Virus record (IMG/VR): IMGVR_UViG_2030936005_000025
Span: 192,001-256,000 of that record
Origin: a virus
Taxonomy: Duplodnaviria; Caudoviricetes
Length of the DNA stretch: 64,000 bases
Strand: one strand, 5' to 3'
Shown: positions 6,816 through 12,657 of the stretch, piece by piece
How positions within the stretch are numbered: position 1 is the first letter of the stretch
Layout: every line of letters starts with the position of its first letter
Program-made: the position numbers and the translations under genes
The notes under the pieces: model-generated
What the model was told of the DNA's origin: nothing
The model's input: the letters and a program-made list of their open reading frames with translations, nothing else
The model's database searches: none

Positions 6816-6860
6816 CTTTTCAATCCTAAGGTTAAAAACTAAGTGTGGTTCTTCACTCTA

Positions 6861-6868
6861 ATAATATC
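6861..6868 (-). promoter_or_regulatory. putative phage early promoter (GATATTAT)
   Basis: Recurrent motif, minus-strand context AAATAGATATTATTAGAGTG. Confidence 0.6.
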
Positions 6869-6899
6869 TATTTAATTAATTATGAGAGATCTTTATTTT

Positions 6900-7430
6900 A
6901 TGTAAGAAACGATGTCATTTTATTTTCATTTCGCTATGGGTATTTCTGAATGCCCATAATGAAGTGTGACCGCCATCGTGCTTCTTGGTAGTTTTGCCAT
7001 TCTTTATTGCTATCTACAAAGTGGGGAGGCGGCCTTCCTCCCCCTTTCCTTAAGTACATTTGATTGGGTGTATTTAAGGAAAGCATGGGGGCATGCTTTT
7101 ATTCTGTTGTAAGTCGTGGTTGTTAAAGGACCCAGAGGGTTGGTTTGACTTTTCCTCTTCCCTTTGGGTTCTTTATTTAACATTTCTCTATGTTTGTTTA
7201 TTGAGCTGACATAGAGAAGTGCGCGCCGGTACTTCTTATCCATGTTCTTGCTTCGCCAGATGGTTTGGCAGAGGGGCTTTAGGTAGCCCCTTCTTTCTAT
7301 GTGTATTTACGAGTATACATAGAAAGCGTACCTAGCTGGTATCGCCCATCCCGCTAGTTTTTCTATCGCCTTCTTTTCTAGCCGGGATTACTTAGCCCTG
7401 TGGGGAGATTTTCTACAGGGCGCTTTTCAA
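6900..7430 (+). ncRNA. candidate structured RNA or long structured leader (array of long hairpins)
   Basis: At least eight stems of 7-15 bp, e.g. 7044-7058/7069-7083, 7125-7139/7160-7174, 7293-7305/7314-7326; G-U wobbles favour the + strand. Confidence 0.45.
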
Positions 7431-7440
7431 TGGAGAACCC

Positions 7441-7740
7441 ATGTCACAAGTTGATTTGAACACCCCTGCTTTCGTTAGCTATTCAAAGGCTAACGAGTCT
7501 ATGCTTTCCTCATTGAAAAGCAAGAAATCTGTTAAGTTCGCCCGTAAAGGCTGGAACGGTAAACAACTCCACGTCCAGGTACACGGATCCATTCCAACCA
7601 GTCAGGTTGATTTGGAGAATGGCGAGAACGCCTACATCGAACCTTTCTTTGTTATCGTTAACAAAGCAAACAGCCGCGTGAACATCTGGGTACCATCGGT
7701 CTCAGATCTGCAAGCTGAAGACTGGTACGAAGTTCAGTAA
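7441..7740 (+). CDS. DUF2829-family protein (Tad2-like anti-Thoeris sponge candidate)
   Basis: Signature ARKGWNGK...WVPSVSDLQAEDW. Confidence 0.75.
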   Translation: MSQVDLNTPAFVSYSKANESMLSSLKSKKSVKFARKGWNGKQLHVQVHGSIPTSQVDLENGENAYIEPFFVIVNKANSRVNIWVPSVSDLQAEDWYEVQ

Positions 7741-7978
7741 TTTATTAACGCAGAGTTTATACTCTGTTAAAGAATTCCAGCCGGAGAGTGTAGCACATTA
7801 GCTAAGTGCATCCGGTATCTCTCCCGAGCATACATGTTCCAGTCGGCGGGAAGAGATCCAGAATTGACAGGACCACAATTTGGTTGATCAATCAATAGAT
7901 AAGTTTTATGTCAAGATAAGAACAGTCCTTTCACAGATTCTGAAAGTACACCAACTGTATCTAATCGAGATTAAATAG

Positions 7979-8203
7979 ATGAAACTTTATCTTATTGAGC
8001 GCACAGACAAAGTCTGCATATACGACAATTATTTTGCTACAGTGGTAGCAGCGCCCACAGAGGAAAGGTCACGTGAGTTAGCGTTGGCTTTATTCGCTCG
8101 AGGAGATGACTCGTCTTCGGATGAGTTCCTTGACGTAAGCACGATCGCTATAAACGCCCTTGTCCCTGAGGGTATAATCTTATCGGACTATAATGCCGGA
8201 TAA
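7979..8203 (+). CDS. small phage hypothetical protein
   Basis: 74 aa; MKLYLI...VVAA..EE..R...GIILSDYNAG resembles a widespread small phage protein family. Confidence 0.7.
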   Translation: MKLYLIERTDKVCIYDNYFATVVAAPTEERSRELALALFARGDDSSSDEFLDVSTIAINALVPEGIILSDYNAG

Positions 8204-8211
8204 GAGTAATG

Positions 8212-8337
8212 ACCGCCTGGAATTCCCGGAACCTCAAATTAAATTTGAGATCGAAAGAACATTGACGCTGGTTGCGAGTTGATAACGAAACCAAAGTCAT
8301 GGCTCCGGGAATTACTGATTTAAATATCGAAGGCGGT
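8212..8337 (+). ncRNA. candidate compact structured RNA of unknown class
   Basis: Nested helices ACCGCCT/AGGCGGT (8212-8218/8331-8337) and AATTCCCGGA/TCCGGGAATT (8221-8230/8304-8313) with two inner hairpins; intergenic; strand not certain. Confidence 0.5.
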
Positions 8338-8412
8338 AATATTATTTAGAGTCTATCTTATTTATCTTTTGACTGAACTTTCTCAGTCACTAAAAATATA
8401 AAGGTAAGTAAA

Positions 8413-8895
8413 ATGGATTCTATTGGGATGTTACTGTTGGCATTAATTGCAGGTGTCGGTATTGGTTCTGCGATCACTATTTTGATTCAAAAGCGTCGCG
8501 ACGCTGGAACGGTTGGTACCAATCCAGAACTGCACGCGTATATCACTTCTGCCGAGGCTAAACTTCAGGCTCAAGTTGATGAGCTTAAAACAAAACTCCT
8601 ACCTGCCGATACACAAGAGAAACTCAAAGGTATTGGCGATGGGTTACTGTCAACGATCAAAGATAAACTGCTTGACGATCTCTCTGGTTTGAGACTCAAT
8701 GGCGAATCACATCTTCAGCAAATCGAAGATATCGTGAAACGCATTGAAGGTCTGACTGAAGCTGAACTCGTCAAACTGCATCTGGAAAAAGAAACACCGC
8801 CCGCTGATCCAGTGTTGGCTGTCTCTCCTTCCGATCCACAGACAGTAGTCTCTTCTGAACCAGCGATTCCTGCTGATCAGAATAAAGTCGTTTAA
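8413..8895 (+). CDS. membrane-anchored coiled-coil protein
   Basis: 160 aa; N-terminal TM helix, helical middle, Pro-rich tail; AAGGT RBS. Confidence 0.75.
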   Translation: MDSIGMLLLALIAGVGIGSAITILIQKRRDAGTVGTNPELHAYITSAEAKLQAQVDELKTKLLPADTQEKLKGIGDGLLSTIKDKLLDDLSGLRLNGESHLQQIEDIVKRIEGLTEAELVKLHLEKETPPADPVLAVSPSDPQTVVSSEPAIPADQNKVV

Positions 8896-8901
8896 GTATT
8901 T

Positions 8902-8977
8902 GCTTCCATAGTTCAGTCGGCAGAACGGTCGCCTGTTAAGCGATATGTCGCAGGTTCGAGTCCTGCTGGAAGCGCCA
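8902..8977 (+). tRNA. trnN: tRNA-Asn (GTT)
   Basis: Canonical 76-nt cloverleaf: GCTTCCA/TGGAAGC acceptor, GTTC/GAAC D stem, loop CT-GTT-AA, GCAGG-TTCGAGT-CCTGC T arm, encoded CCA. Confidence 0.97.
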
Positions 8978-9002
8978 ATTTACATTCACATCTGCCAGTT
9001 AC

Positions 9003-9107
9003 TGCGGTCGTGTCTTCAGAGGCACCGTAAATGTATGATAGTGGATGATTAGTTTCTACCACTGGATATCTTTACAATAGTTAGGTTAAATCCCTAAGGC
9101 CGCGCCA
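9003..9107 (+). ncRNA. tRNA-like RNA 1 (acceptor and T arm, expanded anticodon domain, encoded CCA)
   Basis: GCGGTC/GGCCGC acceptor followed by GCCA; GTGTC/GGCAC arm; GTAAA/TTTAC long arm; TTAGG-TTAAATC-CCTAA T-like arm. Confidence 0.55.
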
Positions 9108-9116
9108 GATTTATAT

Positions 9117-9250
9117 GAGGGTCGTGTCGTGGGACACAAGTTCAGTTATGCTCTAGCGATCTAAGATCGTGAACCCGTTAGCGGTGAAGATAGACAACTC
9201 TACTTCAACTGTACTGAATGATAAGCCGAGTTCGACTCTCGGGATCCTCT
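9117..9250 (+). ncRNA. tRNA-like RNA 2 (acceptor and T arm, expanded multi-hairpin anticodon domain)
   Basis: GAGGGTC/GATCCTC 7-bp acceptor; GTGTC/GACAC arm; TTCAGT/ACTGAA stem; canonical CCGAG-TTCGACT-CTCGG T arm; no encoded CCA. Confidence 0.6.
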
Positions 9251-9323
9251 ATCAACTTCATAATGTCATGAAGATCCGTACCTACCGTTTTGGTTTTTGG
9301 TACCCAATCCATGAGGAAGTAAT

Positions 9324-9647
9324 ATGTCAAATTTAGAAAAAGAGTTAGAATCAAGATATTTCGCTCGCATTCCAGATGTTGGTGAGAGAACTAACAATGA
9401 TCCAGCTTATTTGATGTCAAGTAATGATGTCCTTAAACTGATCAAAGCTATGTACCAGGATGGTTGTGACGCATCTGGCGACAGTCTTGAACCTGAACGT
9501 TTTAAACACCCCATCATTCTGGATCGATCATCGGGTAAAGAAGTTATCACCAGTTATATGGTCCAGGGGATTATCAAAGAAGCCACCGTAAATCACGGAT
9601 GGTCTGATGTTAAGCTTTATGGTAAACAGCTTCTGTTTATTAAGTAA
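9324..9647 (+). CDS. hypothetical protein
   Basis: 107 aa; GAGGA RBS; terminator-like hairpin with T-tract near 9661-9690. Confidence 0.75.
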   Translation: MSNLEKELESRYFARIPDVGERTNNDPAYLMSSNDVLKLIKAMYQDGCDASGDSLEPERFKHPIILDRSSGKEVITSYMVQGIIKEATVNHGWSDVKLYGKQLLFIK

Positions 9648-9709
9648 AATTAAATGAAGAGAGAAGGGGTCGGTTGATCCTTTCTCTTTTTGTTTGTCTG
9701 GAGATATTT

Positions 9710-9820
9710 ATGAGTATCTTAAAGAAGCTCCATAATTGGTTTTATAAAGACATGGTTTATTCTGTTTCTGCCGATGCTTGGTTTTACCAAGAAGGCGCAA
9801 CAGGTGAATGGGTGGATTAA
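9710..9820 (+). CDS. small hypothetical protein (36 aa)
   Basis: GGAGA RBS; MSILKKLHNWFYKDMVYSVSADAWFYQEGATGEWVD; stop abuts next ATG; absent from the ORF track. Confidence 0.5.
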   Translation: MSILKKLHNWFYKDMVYSVSADAWFYQEGATGEWVD

Positions 9821-10060
9821 ATGAAAGATCAGATACCTGAAGGTTTTGTTCCAGATAACTTTAAGTTCATCAGTAACCAACCTCATTTAACAGTCAGTGG
9901 TTTTACTATGGTTAATCCCTTGGCCACCAAACTGTTAGTTGAAGTAGAGCGTCAATTAAAATCACCGCGCAATGCGATGCAAAAGAAAACAAGATCACCT
10001 TTAGATGTTCCTTCTTCTGGAATGTTCTATTGGTCACCTCTCAATTCAGTAGGAAAGTAA
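9821..10060 (+). CDS. hypothetical protein
   Basis: 79 aa; stop abuts the glutaredoxin start. Confidence 0.6.
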   Translation: MKDQIPEGFVPDNFKFISNQPHLTVSGFTMVNPLATKLLVEVERQLKSPRNAMQKKTRSPLDVPSSGMFYWSPLNSVGK

Positions 10061-10315
10061 ATGAAAGTTGTGATTTACGGAAAACCTGCGTGCGTGTTCT
10101 GTACTCGTGCGAAGGACTTAGTTAAGGCCAAAGGAATCGATCATGAGTATGTCGATATCATCGAAACCGGCATGGGTCGTGAAGGCCTGGAAGAAATTGT
10201 GGGAGGTCCTGTTACGACCGTTCCTCAAATCTTTGTCGATAATGTTCATATTGGTGGTTATACTGATCTGGTATCTCACCTTGTCAAGTCTGACGAATCC
10301 GAAGTAAAGGTGTAA
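10061..10315 (+). CDS. grx: glutaredoxin (NrdC/Grx-like)
   Basis: CVFC active site, TVPQIFV cis-Pro motif, HIGGYTDL. Confidence 0.92.
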   Translation: MKVVIYGKPACVFCTRAKDLVKAKGIDHEYVDIIETGMGREGLEEIVGGPVTTVPQIFVDNVHIGGYTDLVSHLVKSDESEVKV

Positions 10316-10317
10316 TT

Positions 10318-10455
10318 ATGGATTTTGATTTGGATGATCTGAACCTTGAAGGTTTGGATGAAGCTGAAGCTCGTAACAATGAGCGCCAGGAAGCGGCTGA
10401 TAAAGCTGCGGCAGCGGTTGGCGATGAAGCTGACTGCGAAGGTTGTAAAATCTAA
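10318..10455 (+). CDS. 45-aa acidic peptide ending in an RNR-alpha-like CxxC tail
   Basis: MDFDLDDLNLEGLDEAEARNNERQEAADKAAAAVGDEADCEGCKI; starts 2 nt after grx stop; absent from the ORF track. Confidence 0.7.
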   Translation: MDFDLDDLNLEGLDEAEARNNERQEAADKAAAAVGDEADCEGCKI

Positions 10456-10481
10456 TTTTGATAAGGCGATAAGTTTTGACC

Positions 10482-10619
10482 ATGAAAAAGAAAAAGACTT
10501 CTTTGAAAGAAAAGATCCGTCGCCAGAATCAGAATGCTGAGAAGACCTTATACCTCGATGGCGCTGGTGATACTTTCACGATGACCAAAACCAAAGACGG
10601 CTATAAGTTAAACGTGTAG
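10482..10619 (+). CDS. small basic hypothetical protein (45 aa)
   Basis: MKKKKTSLKEKIRRQNQNAEKTLYLDGAGDTFTMTKTKDGYKLNV; fills the gap before the next gene; absent from the ORF track. Confidence 0.5.
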   Translation: MKKKKTSLKEKIRRQNQNAEKTLYLDGAGDTFTMTKTKDGYKLNV

Positions 10620-10681
10620 GGTAGCAATACCCTACTCCTATATTTCATCTCCAACCACTACTATGACCGAGAGAGAAGAAT

Positions 10682-11290
10682 ATGAAACTTAAGTTGATTA
10701 CTGTTGATAAACGTACCTACGCAATTAAGACTCGATATATCGAGCTGAATAGTGATGCCAGTGTGCATTACCGCTCCCCTATCACTGGAAAATTCCCAAC
10801 AGGGGATGACGATACAATTACTGATGTGCTCAGGTCAGCTCCACCTACTGCCGTTGCTGTTGTGTATTCTTGTAACAGAGAACCAATCTATATTGAAAAG
10901 CATGACGGTGCGTATGTTATCTCTGAAGCTAAGACCATTGAGATTGTCAATCAGCCAGTGGACTTCGATGATGTTGATTTCTGGGTTAACACCAAAGGCG
11001 AGGAAGAGTGGAAAAAGGTTGGACTAGGATATTACATTGAGTATTCTAGAGTACACCTGAATGACAGTTACCAGGTCGCTCAAAAGGATTTCAATTTAAA
11101 TGAAAAAATGCAAGGGATAGTCCACCTGCCAAACGGTCAACTTGGTAAAGCAGTAAGATGGTATCTCAATGGATCGAGGACTTGGCTTAGAGTCACTGAG
11201 GGGATGAGTGAGGATATTCTTTCTAAACTGACCGTGATCACTATCCTTGATGGAAAAAATCCTAATGACCCAGGGTATAAACTTCCATAA
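10682..11290 (+). CDS. hypothetical protein
   Basis: 202 aa; GAGAGAAG RBS. Confidence 0.75.
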   Translation: MKLKLITVDKRTYAIKTRYIELNSDASVHYRSPITGKFPTGDDDTITDVLRSAPPTAVAVVYSCNREPIYIEKHDGAYVISEAKTIEIVNQPVDFDDVDFWVNTKGEEEWKKVGLGYYIEYSRVHLNDSYQVAQKDFNLNEKMQGIVHLPNGQLGKAVRWYLNGSRTWLRVTEGMSEDILSKLTVITILDGKNPNDPGYKLP

Positions 11291-11291
11291 G

Positions 11292-11299
11292 TATATTAT
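11292..11299 (+). promoter_or_regulatory. putative early promoter (TATATTAT) in front of the long non-coding region
   Basis: Same motif and downstream TAA.T context as the minus-strand early promoters; no credible CDS follows for ~900 nt. Confidence 0.55.
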
Positions 11300-12158
11300 G
11301 TAATTCAATCGAGTGTAACTGATCGCTGTTCTGCGGAATAGTATGGTTTCATCACCCCGTTATATTCGACTGTAAGACCCTCGTTATCCAGGTGTGGGTA
11401 CATAACGAGGGCAGTGTCCGGTGGGTTGCACTACCGGACTAAATCCAAGAGTGAACGGCGGCTTAAGCCCGCTACTGTAAGTAGCTCTTGGTTGGGTGAT
11501 ATTATGTACTTTCACTGCATAATGTCCTCTGGCGGTGGTTGGACTTTTGGCGTTCTTCGCCATTGTCTGACAGATCACCGCACCCCTTTGTACCAGTGGC
11601 TGATATCCAAGTAGAGCTTTAATTATACCTGACGGATAGCGCTCACAGTGTTTCAACCATTGGTACATCCTCTTGAGGATCTTGAACGAAAACCGTAGGG
11701 TAACCGCCGAGCACATTGCGTTGCATTCAAGGCGGCTTAAGCAGGGGACTAGGTAGTCTTCCTGGGTGATATCAAGATCCTCAAACCTACTACTCTCCGT
11801 GATATGGAGTAGACACCCCGTGGTGGGGGCATCGTAACCATCTGATGAGTCCGCGATGAGAAATAAAGAGACGAAACGGGTTCTGTCGTTCGGAGACTCC
11901 AACTCCTGACAGATCCGTCATGAATCGCTCTGCCTTAACTGTGAGGAGCAGCCTCAATCTACGATTCTAGAGGAACAGCAGCGTTACTGAAAGATCCACG
12001 GCAAATGGATCGAAGCAGATAACAAACAGTCCGCTCCCTTTGCCAGGGGAGAAGTTGTTAAAACCAAGAGGTGTAGACAGCCTTTAGATCACCGTGGTAG
12101 TAAAATGGGGTTGCTCCCAGAGTAGCTATCAGAAAGTGGTCTTTAGAGTGGCTATACA
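11300..12158 (+). ncRNA. candidate large (~860 nt) structured non-coding RNA
   Basis: No credible CDS; more than 15 helices including long-range ones; promoter upstream; last helix closes just before the A-run and terminator hairpin. Confidence 0.6.
11812..11887 (+). ncRNA. type III hammerhead-ribozyme-like fold with GUG at the cleavage triplet
   Basis: CTGATGA 11842-11848; stem II GTC/GAC; GAAA 11873-11876; stem III CCCGT/ACGGG plus GACA/TGTC; stem I GTGG/CCAT; position 17 is G11822. Confidence 0.5.
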
Positions 12159-12180
12159 AAAAAAAATAACAGATCGAGAT

Positions 12181-12208
12181 CCTCTACTCTCCTAACGGAG
12201 AGTAGAGG
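12181..12208. terminator. perfect 12-bp hairpin at a convergent junction
   Basis: CCTCTACTCTCC-TAAC-GGAGAGTAGAGG, with A-run at 12158-12167. Confidence 0.75.
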
Positions 12209-12214
12209 TAATCT

Positions 12215-12640
12215 TTATGCTGTCAAATAAAGTTCAGCCCAGATTTTAAATAAACGTTTCATGTCATTTGCGATCAATCCTAATGCCCGTGTATTTTTCA
12301 AGTTACCGGCATACAACCAAAGTTCACACTCAGGTTCACCTACGATCACAATGTCATTGAAATACATGACCAGAGATTTGGATGAGGTAGCAATGAGATC
12401 TTTGCGATTAACTGCAAAGCAGAATTCATTGGATTCAAGAATCACATTGTAGAAATAAGTGAACAGAGCTGCATCAAAACTGTCTGGTTCTAATTCATAA
12501 GTCTCAGCTAACTTAATGCTCTCCTCTTCATTAATAGCTAATTTAGTCAGAGAGTCGTTACCGGTGATAGCAGACAGGTTGCGTTTGAAGATGGTTTCCA
12601 TGATAGCTTTCCTTAATAAGTTAAGAACATTATTGTTCAT
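12215..12640 (-). CDS. hypothetical protein (single-gene early cassette)
   Basis: 141 aa; promoter motif at 12650-12657 upstream, hairpin downstream. Confidence 0.7.
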   Translation of the reverse strand: MNNNVLNLLRKAIMETIFKRNLSAITGNDSLTKLAINEEESIKLAETYELEPDSFDAALFTYFYNVILESNEFCFAVNRKDLIATSSKSLVMYFNDIVIVGEPECELWLYAGNLKNTRALGLIANDMKRLFKIWAELYLTA

Positions 12641-12649
12641 ATTACTTAA

Positions 12650-12657
12650 ATGATATA
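12650..12657 (-). promoter_or_regulatory. putative early promoter (TATATCAT)
   Basis: Recurrent motif, context TTTCAGCCCTATATCATTTAAGT. Confidence 0.5.

Follow-up and report, generated by a model that had tools for sequence, protein, structure and literature searches.

Organization of the locus

Positions ~6894-12208 on the plus strand of the window analysed here, a 64,000-nucleotide stretch comprising bases 192001-256000 of a 264-kb virus record (IMG/VR IMGVR_UViG_2030936005_000025), form an island in which small protein genes alternate with structured non-coding DNA, including a 917-nt RNA gene with a predicted type I hammerhead ribozyme. The island is probably best described as a conserved locus for stable RNAs in a nucleus-forming jumbo phage of the OBP/AH04 type, with a layout resembling that of the T4 tRNA region, rather than as one dedicated system. 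The phage is placed among the nucleus-forming jumbo phages because its genome encodes a nuclear-shell protein (phrog_4795, E 9e-114); the corresponding open reading frame (ORF) is named by PHROGs only and has no Pfam or PDB match by sequence.

A first-pass annotation of the same DNA had described about 2 kb of structured non-coding sequence in an otherwise densely coding window, which is correct and slightly understated. Positions 6816-12214 contain ~2.8 kb of coding DNA, when the accepted genes are summed, and ~2.5 kb of non-coding DNA, including a 76-nt tRNA. When ORFs of 70 aa or more are mapped greedily, the coding share is 59% in the island versus 95% in the remaining window, and the former value is too high because two non-conserved minus-strand ORFs were counted. 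Eight of the 13 gaps of at least 150 bp in the window fall in the island, which also contains 16 terminator-like hairpins compared with 4.6 +/- 2.2 in shuffled sequences, and folding z scores from -3.2 to -6.2 were obtained for pieces of a hairpin array, two tRNA-shaped RNAs and a hairpin at 9651-9696. The gene map, constructed from the ORF listing, ARAGORN and Rfam, allows six non-coding elements to be named in addition to the tRNA-Asn recognized by ARAGORN and Rfam, which is the number of candidates originally proposed: the hairpin array, the leader of the 74-aa gene, the weaker leader of the 160-aa gene, tRNA-shaped RNAs A and B, and the 917-nt RNA (Table 1). The identities given earlier to the Tad2-like protein (PF11195), the glutaredoxin (PF00462) and the CxxC peptide (phrog_10239) likewise hold.

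Table 1. Features of the island and of its large RNA, with positions in the window
Feature	Position	Strand	Basis or remark
AT-rich promoter-like block	6860-6905	+	ends in 12-mer TATTTTATGTAA at 6894-6905
Tandem hairpin array, ~500 nt, leader or small RNAs before Tad2-like gene	6930-7425	+	covariation, folding
Tad2-like gene, 99 aa	7441-7740	+	PF11195, E 6.6e-15
Structured leader before 74-aa gene, ~100 nt	7818-7917	+	moderate evidence
74-aa protein gene	7979-8203	+	phrog_5444, E 2e-11
Leader of 160-aa gene, weak RNA candidate	8306-8412	+	conservation
160-aa protein gene, hydrophobic N-terminus	8413-8895	+	ORF; annotated homologues in AH04, pEt-SU, N1M2
tRNA-Asn (GUU)	8902-8977	+	ARAGORN; Rfam tRNA, 71 bits
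tRNA-shaped RNA A	9004-9107	+	fold z -3.2, covariation
tRNA-shaped RNA B	9117-9250	+	fold z -3.2, conservation
107-aa protein gene	9324-9647	+	ORF; partial PHROG matches
Intrinsic-terminator-like hairpin, 21 bp and U run	9651-9696	+	-25.2 kcal/mol, z -6.2
Mini-gene, 36 aa	9710-9820	+	ORF, ATG at 9710
Mini-gene, 79 aa	9821-10060	+	ORF
Glutaredoxin gene, 84 aa	10061-10315	+	PF00462, E 1.5e-16
Acidic CxxC peptide gene, 45 aa	10318-10455	+	phrog_10239, E 8.5e-9
47-aa gene	10476-10619	+	ORF
Weaker hairpin between 47-aa and 202-aa genes	10616-10635	+	hairpin scan
202-aa gene	10682-11290	+	ORF
Structured non-coding RNA gene, 917 nt	11292-12208	+	from promoter-like 12-mer (11292-11303) to terminator
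5' core of large RNA	11362-11493	+	invariant UGUAAGACC and AAAUCCA between covarying helices
Type I hammerhead (predicted)	11820-11927	+	invariant core, covarying helices and pseudoknot
Pseudoknot, 5' strand	11830-11834	+	covariation
Stem I	11839-41/11920-22	+	covariation
CUGAUGA and GAAA	11842-48; 11873-76	+	catalytic core
Stem II; loop II	11849-51/11870-72; 11852-69	+	covariation
Stem III	11876-11918	+	A11876 to U11918, then C11919
Predicted cut	between C11919 and A11920	+	fold
3' domain released by the predicted cut, optional module	11920-12180	+	structured, compensatory pairs
Terminator hairpin, 12 bp, closing the island	12181-12208	+	positionally conserved hairpin in all relatives

The nearest published relative of the island lies in Erwinia phage AH04, and remoter ones are found in Edwardsiella phage pEt-SU, Kosakonia phage Kc263, Pantoea phage Survivor, Pseudomonas phage OBP and Serratia phage Yubaba. 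Together with N1M2 and SXP01, these make up eight annotated relatives with a common order of elements, and the locus is also present in three IMG/VR genomes, so that the order is kept in 12 genomes overall. Leftward genes and a divergent promoter region are followed by a gene-free leader of 600-800 bp, the Tad2-like gene, small ORFs, tRNAs with tRNA-like RNAs, the glutaredoxin gene, a gene-free stretch of 0.7-1.2 kb and virion genes, the right end being formed by two virion genes, thymidylate kinase and terminase. The first-pass annotation had made its reading depend on the elements being conserved together in relatives, and this is borne out by synteny; compensatory base pairs mark the elements as features at the RNA level. 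The genes found between the RNAs differ among relatives: neither the 107-aa nor the 202-aa gene is present throughout, and different relatives have different sets of tRNAs. The same layout, comprising a long leader, tRNAs, a thioredoxin-like gene and a gene-free stretch of ~0.8 kb, was noticed in a remoter jumbo phage, Aeromonas phage D3 (locus L255, 1278-2493 and 3808-4605); this locus has no match to the models of the large RNA described below (R1 and R2), and its gene-free stretch may encode an unrelated RNA at the equivalent site.

The large non-coding RNA

Three parts make up the 917-nt RNA: a multi-helix domain of 530 nt, the type I hammerhead, which is complete, and a 3' domain with the terminator at its end. 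A large RNA occupies the equivalent site in 12 OBP/AH04-like jumbo phages, and the copy in the window is 86% identical to that of AH04, versus 79-81% for the adjoining genes. In alignments of 7 and then 10 homologues, invariant blocks alternate with variable stretches, while folding of the two clades separately with RNAalifold yielded ~30 helices, many with compensatory changes, the same helices being recovered in both clades. The best-aligned part is the 5' core of 130 nt, in which 15 of the 27 predicted pairs are changed on both sides. A model of this core (R2), from whose training N1M2 and SXP01 were kept out, as they were for a model of the hammerhead (R1), matches both N1M2 (77 bits) and SXP01 (27.5 bits) at 510-525 nt upstream of their hammerheads; no R2 match was found in the fetched loci of Moabite, Aeromonas phage D3, phiEaH2 and PA1C. 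At threshold, no Rfam family matches the large RNA, which on this comparative evidence is a large, predicted self-cleaving RNA without a catalogued family.

The stretch 11292-12208 contains no conserved ORF and exhibits no 3-base periodicity, its substitutions being spread evenly over codon phases and most of its indels not being multiples of three; a coding function was rejected on the lack of a kept ORF and of codon periodicity. A 172-aa minus-strand ORF at 11384-11902 has no counterpart in relatives. This ORF could be taken, along with the small ORFs annotated over these stretches in some relatives and the turnover of tRNA sets among them, as a sign that the non-coding DNA is decaying, and consists of tRNA pseudogenes, the remnant of a degraded gene or intron, and chance hairpins. 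Such an explanation appears scarcely credible, however, since the ORFs are not kept in relatives, the substitutions lack codon periodicity, conservation is higher in the non-coding than in the coding parts and dozens of compensatory pairs already contradict it.

Hypothetical ORFs have been annotated over the hairpin array or the large RNA in AH04 (L001:1595-1765), Kc263 (L003:7423-7614) and N1M2 (L135:4479-4991). These are probably spurious calls, and such calls over the RNAs in several relatives are a caution for annotators.

The hammerhead and its predicted cleavage

Positions 11842-11881 of the window read CUGAUGA, GUC, an 18-nt loop, GAC, GAAA and CGGGU. The motifs CUGANGA, GUC...GAC and GAAA are invariant in 12 of 12 sequences, and thus correspond to the hammerhead core (C3 U4 G5 A6 N7 G8 A9 ... 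G12 A13 A14, with the pair G10.1-C11.1), N7 being the sole variable core position (U, C or A). The cleavage triplet, expected as NUH after A15.1-U16.1, is provided by an invariant CCGUC and reads GUC, followed by A or G. All three helices can be formed, stems II and III being closed and stem I open, and 16 of 23 pairs are changed on both sides. According to the model-fitted alignment from which these pairs were counted, pairing is retained in 91% of cells compared with 29-40% when the partners are slid, and none of 500 shuffles reaches the observed score. Stem III carries an insert of ~40 nt with a conserved YUCCAR loop, while stem I occurs in several versions (CAU/AUG in the window, CUAU/AUAG in Yubaba and N1M2, CACC/GGUG in Survivor and CAG/CUG in SXP01).

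Further support for the fold comes from a pseudoknot between loop II and the strand 5' of stem I, where CAUCG preceding stem I in the window complements CGAUG at 11854-11858 in the loop. Every sequence keeps 4-6 bp of this interaction in 5-6 versions (CAUCG/CGAUG, UGUCGU/ACGACA, CGUCG/CGACG, CCCG/CGGG and GUUCG/CGAAC, with further variants in SXP01 and N1M2), and the mean of 5.4 bp compares with 3.2 bp in loop shuffles, the observed mean being reached in 0 of 2000. Natural hammerheads often contain pseudoknots that join stems I and II, and fast cleavage depends on them (PMC3088659). An alternative type III register, with CCCG/CGGG as stem III and a GUG triplet, was rejected because its own 5' strand is not kept outside the clade of the window, whereas the downstream CCGUC is invariant.

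The model R1 matches N1M2 (91 bits) and SXP01 (61 bits) and has one match in the genome to which the window belongs, while no match was obtained over the whole genomes of Moabite, Aeromonas phage D3, phiEaH2 and PA1C. A metagenome scan with the core pattern led to 80 fetched loci, none of which belongs to this hammerhead family according to R1. A looser core pattern, with GUC/GAC as stem II, is present in more than 118 viral contigs of IMG/VR; these matches span 26-46 nt, mostly 26-34 nt, and by their length look like compact hammerheads. One IMG/VR contig (L165) contains three core-pattern matches in tandem, ~400 nt apart.

The hammerhead, held by the pseudoknot of loop II and stem I, is predicted to cut the 917-nt RNA after C11919 without the aid of protein. 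According to the fold, this would yield an upstream folded RNA of ~630 nt with a 2',3'-cyclic phosphate and a downstream piece of ~290 nt with a 5'-OH. The 3' domain, 240 nt in length, is missing in pEt-SU and Survivor and, judged by spacing, in SXP01, and in pEt-SU and Survivor the terminator ends 48 nt past the cut site. As the 3' domain is optional, the constant unit comprises the 5' domain and the hammerhead, which points to cleavage as a means of shaping the 3' end of the upstream RNA, the part that would retain the catalytic core and carry the cyclic phosphate end.

This arrangement also bears on the idea that the elements are mostly cis-acting punctuation and include no trans-acting RNAs, the hairpin array providing attenuators, terminators or stability elements between divergent early operons and the RNA of ~0.9 kb a structured insulator that separates the early region from the late virion operon, in which the hammerhead cuts read-through transcripts. 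The large RNA does lie directly before virion genes and end in a terminator, the array separates the first gene from a divergent promoter region, hairpins are followed by U-rich tracts, and a role in dividing long transcripts into pieces of gene length has been proposed for prophage hammerheads (PMC3088659). However, a 530-nt multi-helix domain with invariant single-stranded motifs that out-conserves its neighbour genes goes far beyond the needs of an insulator, the cut in pEt-SU and Survivor removes only the terminator hairpin, as would suit 3'-end shaping of the upstream RNA, and the apical loops of RNAs A and B are conserved. The punctuation hypothesis is considered improbable, and a stable-RNA locus is still preferred.

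tRNA-Asn and the two tRNA-shaped RNAs

The tRNA-Asn is the sole match of the island to Rfam at gathering score, and a search at E <= 10 returned nothing beyond tRNA but sub-threshold noise. It is followed by two RNAs that ARAGORN and Rfam do not call as tRNAs, 8902-8977 being the only call. Both differ from a tRNA in that an arm of 45-80 nt takes the anticodon position, without the cloverleaf's 5-bp stem and 7-nt loop. RNA A is built of four helices, namely an acceptor stem of 6 bp, a hairpin that abuts it at the place of the D arm, a long arm and a T arm, and its 3' end is an encoded GCCA. Among its six homologues (the window, L007, AH04, Survivor, N1M2 and SXP01), 18 of 35 predicted pairs are changed on both sides (covariation term -6.5), and the apical 20 nt of the long arm are nearly invariant, with a single change, in AH04. 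An antisense target of this invariant loop was sought in the phage genome and none was found.

RNA B combines a 7-bp acceptor stem and a canonical T arm with a branched domain of ~80 nt that replaces the anticodon arm. It is 94-98% identical to the copies in pEt-SU and in the IMG/VR phages L007 and L009, coding DNA being ~70% identical to that of pEt-SU; the few changes retain pairing, and, as in RNA A, the apical loops are conserved. In the contigs of a further relative, the RNA B region shows 3 differences and one gap in 213 nt; the divergence there is 15-17% for genes and ~7% for the large RNA. Both RNAs would probably be cut out by host RNase P, 3'-end trimming and CCA enzymes, as for RNAs C and D of T4.

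A further small RNA-like element, with the core ACAACAGGCCAGGG ... CCUGGGAUCCACUUCCCA, is conserved in the tRNA cluster of AH04 (L001:3720-3800), pEt-SU (L002:3890-3990) and Survivor (L004:6420-6500), and is absent from the window.

Leader elements and protein-coding genes

The hairpin array is kept in six phages and contains four terminator-like hairpins and five inverted repeats, with a 14-nt direct repeat common to two hairpins. Two of its pieces fold with z scores of -3.6 and -5.5, and changes on both sides are seen in 22 of 84 predicted pairs. The Tad2-like protein that follows scores 55.8 bits against a PF11195 cut-off of 25 and resembles the solved Tad2 structures 9eib, 8v3e and 8sme (E 4e-9 to 3e-7, with 4e-9 for 8v3e and 9eib), so that both its domain and its likeness to solved proteins place it in the Tad2 family. 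It may bind gcADPR and act as a sponge for Thoeris signals. The leader of the 74-aa gene is kept in AH04, L009 and the distant Kc263, and an alignment of 7741-7978, which includes four sequences only, reveals compensatory changes in 7 of 40 predicted pairs. The leader of the 160-aa gene, at 87-94% identity in close relatives only, has one compensatory pair.

The glutaredoxin scores 60.8 bits against a PF00462 cut-off of 22.9 and carries CVFC at residues 11-14, in keeping with membership of that family. The CxxC peptide matches the 164-aa glutaredoxin of Survivor (L004:6798-7292) along residues 120-164, with 47% identity (E 1e-10); judged from this alignment, it is the split-off C-terminal tail of a glutaredoxin, both parts being fused in Survivor. 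The 122-aa glutaredoxin of Kc263 does not contain the tail. Since a ribonucleotide reductase large subunit (PF02867) was not found in the phage genome, any such partner of the glutaredoxin or the CxxC peptide would be a host protein.

As for the remaining genes, the 107-aa gene is missing in some relatives and is skipped in the contig of one further relative, and the 47-aa and 202-aa genes (10476-11290) have the homologues AH04_14 and AH04_13. For the 36-aa mini-gene, the ATG, which follows GGAG, is preferred because a TTG start at 9674 falls within the terminator hairpin 9651-9696. The 3' part of this mini-ORF (9741-9822) exhibits 78-80% DNA identity over 82 nt to Escherichia and Shigella phages of ~77 kb (NJ01, 172-1, SGF2 and others), at unannotated or hypothetical stretches.

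Promoter-like motifs and probable transcription units

The AT-rich block at 6860-6905, ending in TTATATTATGTRA, is nearly invariant in an alignment of six phages and is followed by the hairpin series. The 12-mer family TATATTATGTAA to which its end belongs has three sites in the 264-kb genome, at 6894, at 11292 and ~215 nt upstream of the nuclear-shell gene, the copy at 11292 being exact and beginning at the first base past the stop codon of the 202-aa gene. The third copy (G000:C1:174302-174313, minus strand, locus L258) precedes a 642-aa gene of the nuclear-shell (chimallin) type, from which it is separated by a non-coding leader of ~215 nt. A related motif, TATATYAYTTAAGT, is located upstream of several leftward genes, including the one at 12215-12640. 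Early promoters of jumbo phages have been described as AT-rich motifs of ~10 nt near -10 (PMC7598289), which is why the 12-mers are regarded here as putative early promoters.

The terminator-like hairpin at 9651-9696 is 90-92% conserved in AH04, L008 and L009, and the one at 12181-12208 is common to the large RNA and the convergent minus-strand ORF 12215-12640. With respect to the latter hairpin, its sequence matches the terminator that follows thymidylate kinase in AH04 (L001:9492-9552); the leftward 141-aa ORF beyond it (12215-12657, minus strand) has its own promoter-like motif at 12646-12657 and is an insertion relative to AH04. The hairpins at 9651-9696 and 10616-10635, together with the second promoter-like 12-mer at 11292, argue for at least three transcription units.

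The first-pass annotation had regarded the whole island as one co-expressed host-takeover and counter-defence module. On this reading, the RNAs would be effectors that work alongside Tad2, as decoys of anticodon-nuclease, retron, Thoeris or type III/VI CRISPR defences. All parts are indeed on one strand and conserved together, the anti-Thoeris activity of the Tad2 family is proven, RNAs of tRNA shape whose acceptor and T arms are intact could plausibly serve as decoys, and the early-promoter-like motif also precedes the nuclear-shell gene. On the other hand, the island is divided by internal terminators and the second promoter-like motif, the gene content between the RNAs varies, with the 107-aa and 202-aa genes not universal and different tRNA sets, the glutaredoxin and its tail are redox proteins, and no defence family other than Tad2 appears among the Pfam and PHROG matches. 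The joint conservation of the elements is thus confirmed, but their co-expression as a single counter-defence module is considered unlikely.

Function of the locus

The assignment as a stable-RNA locus is preferred because of the internal terminators and second promoter-like site, the varying protein content and the presence of Tad2 as the only anti-defence gene. Transcription would proceed through at least three units on the same strand, with the 12-mers at 6894 and 11292 as presumed early promoters, strong terminators at 9651-9696 and 12181-12208, and the weaker hairpin at 10616-10635. The RNA products would comprise the hairpin array of ~500 nt, the folded leader of ~100 nt, tRNA-Asn, the two tRNA-shaped RNAs and the 917-nt RNA, interspersed with a heterogeneous set of proteins, namely the presumed Tad2 sponge, glutaredoxin with its split-off CxxC tail and small proteins. 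That RNAs are the main products of the island, as was supposed earlier, is plausible, and they may, as a best guess, be made early and in abundance and bind or distract host factors involved in RNA handling or defence.

Several observations weigh against this interpretation. The promoters, the ends and processing of the transcripts and their abundance are predictions from sequence, and nothing ties the RNAs functionally to Tad2 or glutaredoxin. Only the clade of the window keeps the promoter-like 12-mer with which the large RNA starts, and in Yubaba a tRNA lies directly upstream of the large RNA, so that its 5' end may instead arise by processing. With regard to the ribozyme, the best Rfam hammerhead score is 16.3 bits (RF00008) against a threshold of 48.5, in a type III register that relatives do not conserve; the length of the inserts in stem III and in loop II accounts for this low score. 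Stems I and II of the window have just 3 bp each, and minimum free energy folding of an isolated 92-nt piece does not form them (z -0.2).

A bolder and rather speculative proposal is that OBP-like phages express, from early promoters of the nuclear-shell type, a set of trans-acting RNAs, in which a new class of 0.7-1.05-kb RNA matured by a hammerhead and two non-decoding tRNA mimics disarm or hijack host RNA-handling or defence proteins. If this is true, 3'-end formation of the large RNA would be independent of host RNases, which the phage nucleus may exclude. To our knowledge, phages seldom encode large non-coding RNAs of high conservation, and no such RNA of nucleus-forming jumbo phages has been assigned a function. 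Three testable RNA classes are available at this locus in phages that are cultured and amenable to genetics (OBP, AH04, pEt-SU, Yubaba and N1M2): the hairpin-array leader, the non-decoding tRNA mimics that out-conserve neighbouring genes and the ~0.9-kb RNA that contains a ribozyme. The locus is also a natural case for asking what purpose a hammerhead serves within a large RNA.

Comparison with known systems

On the protein side, a known counterpart is Tad2 (Thoeris anti-defence 2, SPO1 Gp34.65), with whose solved forms the 99-aa protein aligns along the whole domain; here the gene follows a structured leader of 500 nt that is conserved together with it. In the T4 tRNA region, as in the island, tRNA genes are clustered together with small ORFs, and two stable non-tRNA RNAs of ~120-140 nt, rnaC and rnaD (species 1 and 2 RNAs), directly follow the last tRNA. 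Similarly to RNAs A and B, T4 rnaC combines a canonical T arm with a closing stem around a large insert. Only chance matches of 7-10 nt are shared with rnaC and rnaD, and because there is no sequence similarity the resemblance is an analogy rather than common membership. Unlike the T4 locus, the island has a hairpin leader of 500 nt, a Tad2 gene, an RNA of ~0.9 kb that bears the predicted ribozyme, and a single tRNA.

The nearest kin of the ribozyme are the pseudoknot-stabilised hammerheads of bacteria, prophages and phages (Perreault et al. 2011, PMC3088659; Rfam clan CL00010), with which it shares the full catalytic core, the GUC triplet, three helices and the Watson-Crick pseudoknot that connects stem I to stem II. 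It differs from them in the ~40-nt stem III insert with its YUCCAR loop, a loop II of 18-24 nt, an open stem I of 2-4 bp (3-4 bp in all but pEt-SU) and its position within a conserved RNA of 0.7-1.05 kb, and the Rfam models score below threshold.

With regard to the large RNA as a whole, GOLLD and ROOL (RF01998, RF03087; Weinberg et al. 2017, PMC5737381) are likewise large ornate non-coding RNAs, GOLLD often being located near tRNAs and in prophages (PMC5737381). Their models have no match up to E = 10 on a 941-nt stretch, nor on the island, and the RNA described here is narrowly distributed, with 12 genomes found, belongs to jumbo phages of Gammaproteobacteria and includes a ribozyme predicted to cleave it. 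By size and phage setting, and for GOLLD also by its tRNA neighbourhood, these two RNAs may be regarded as the nearest functional analogues of the large RNA, as distinct from members of the same family.

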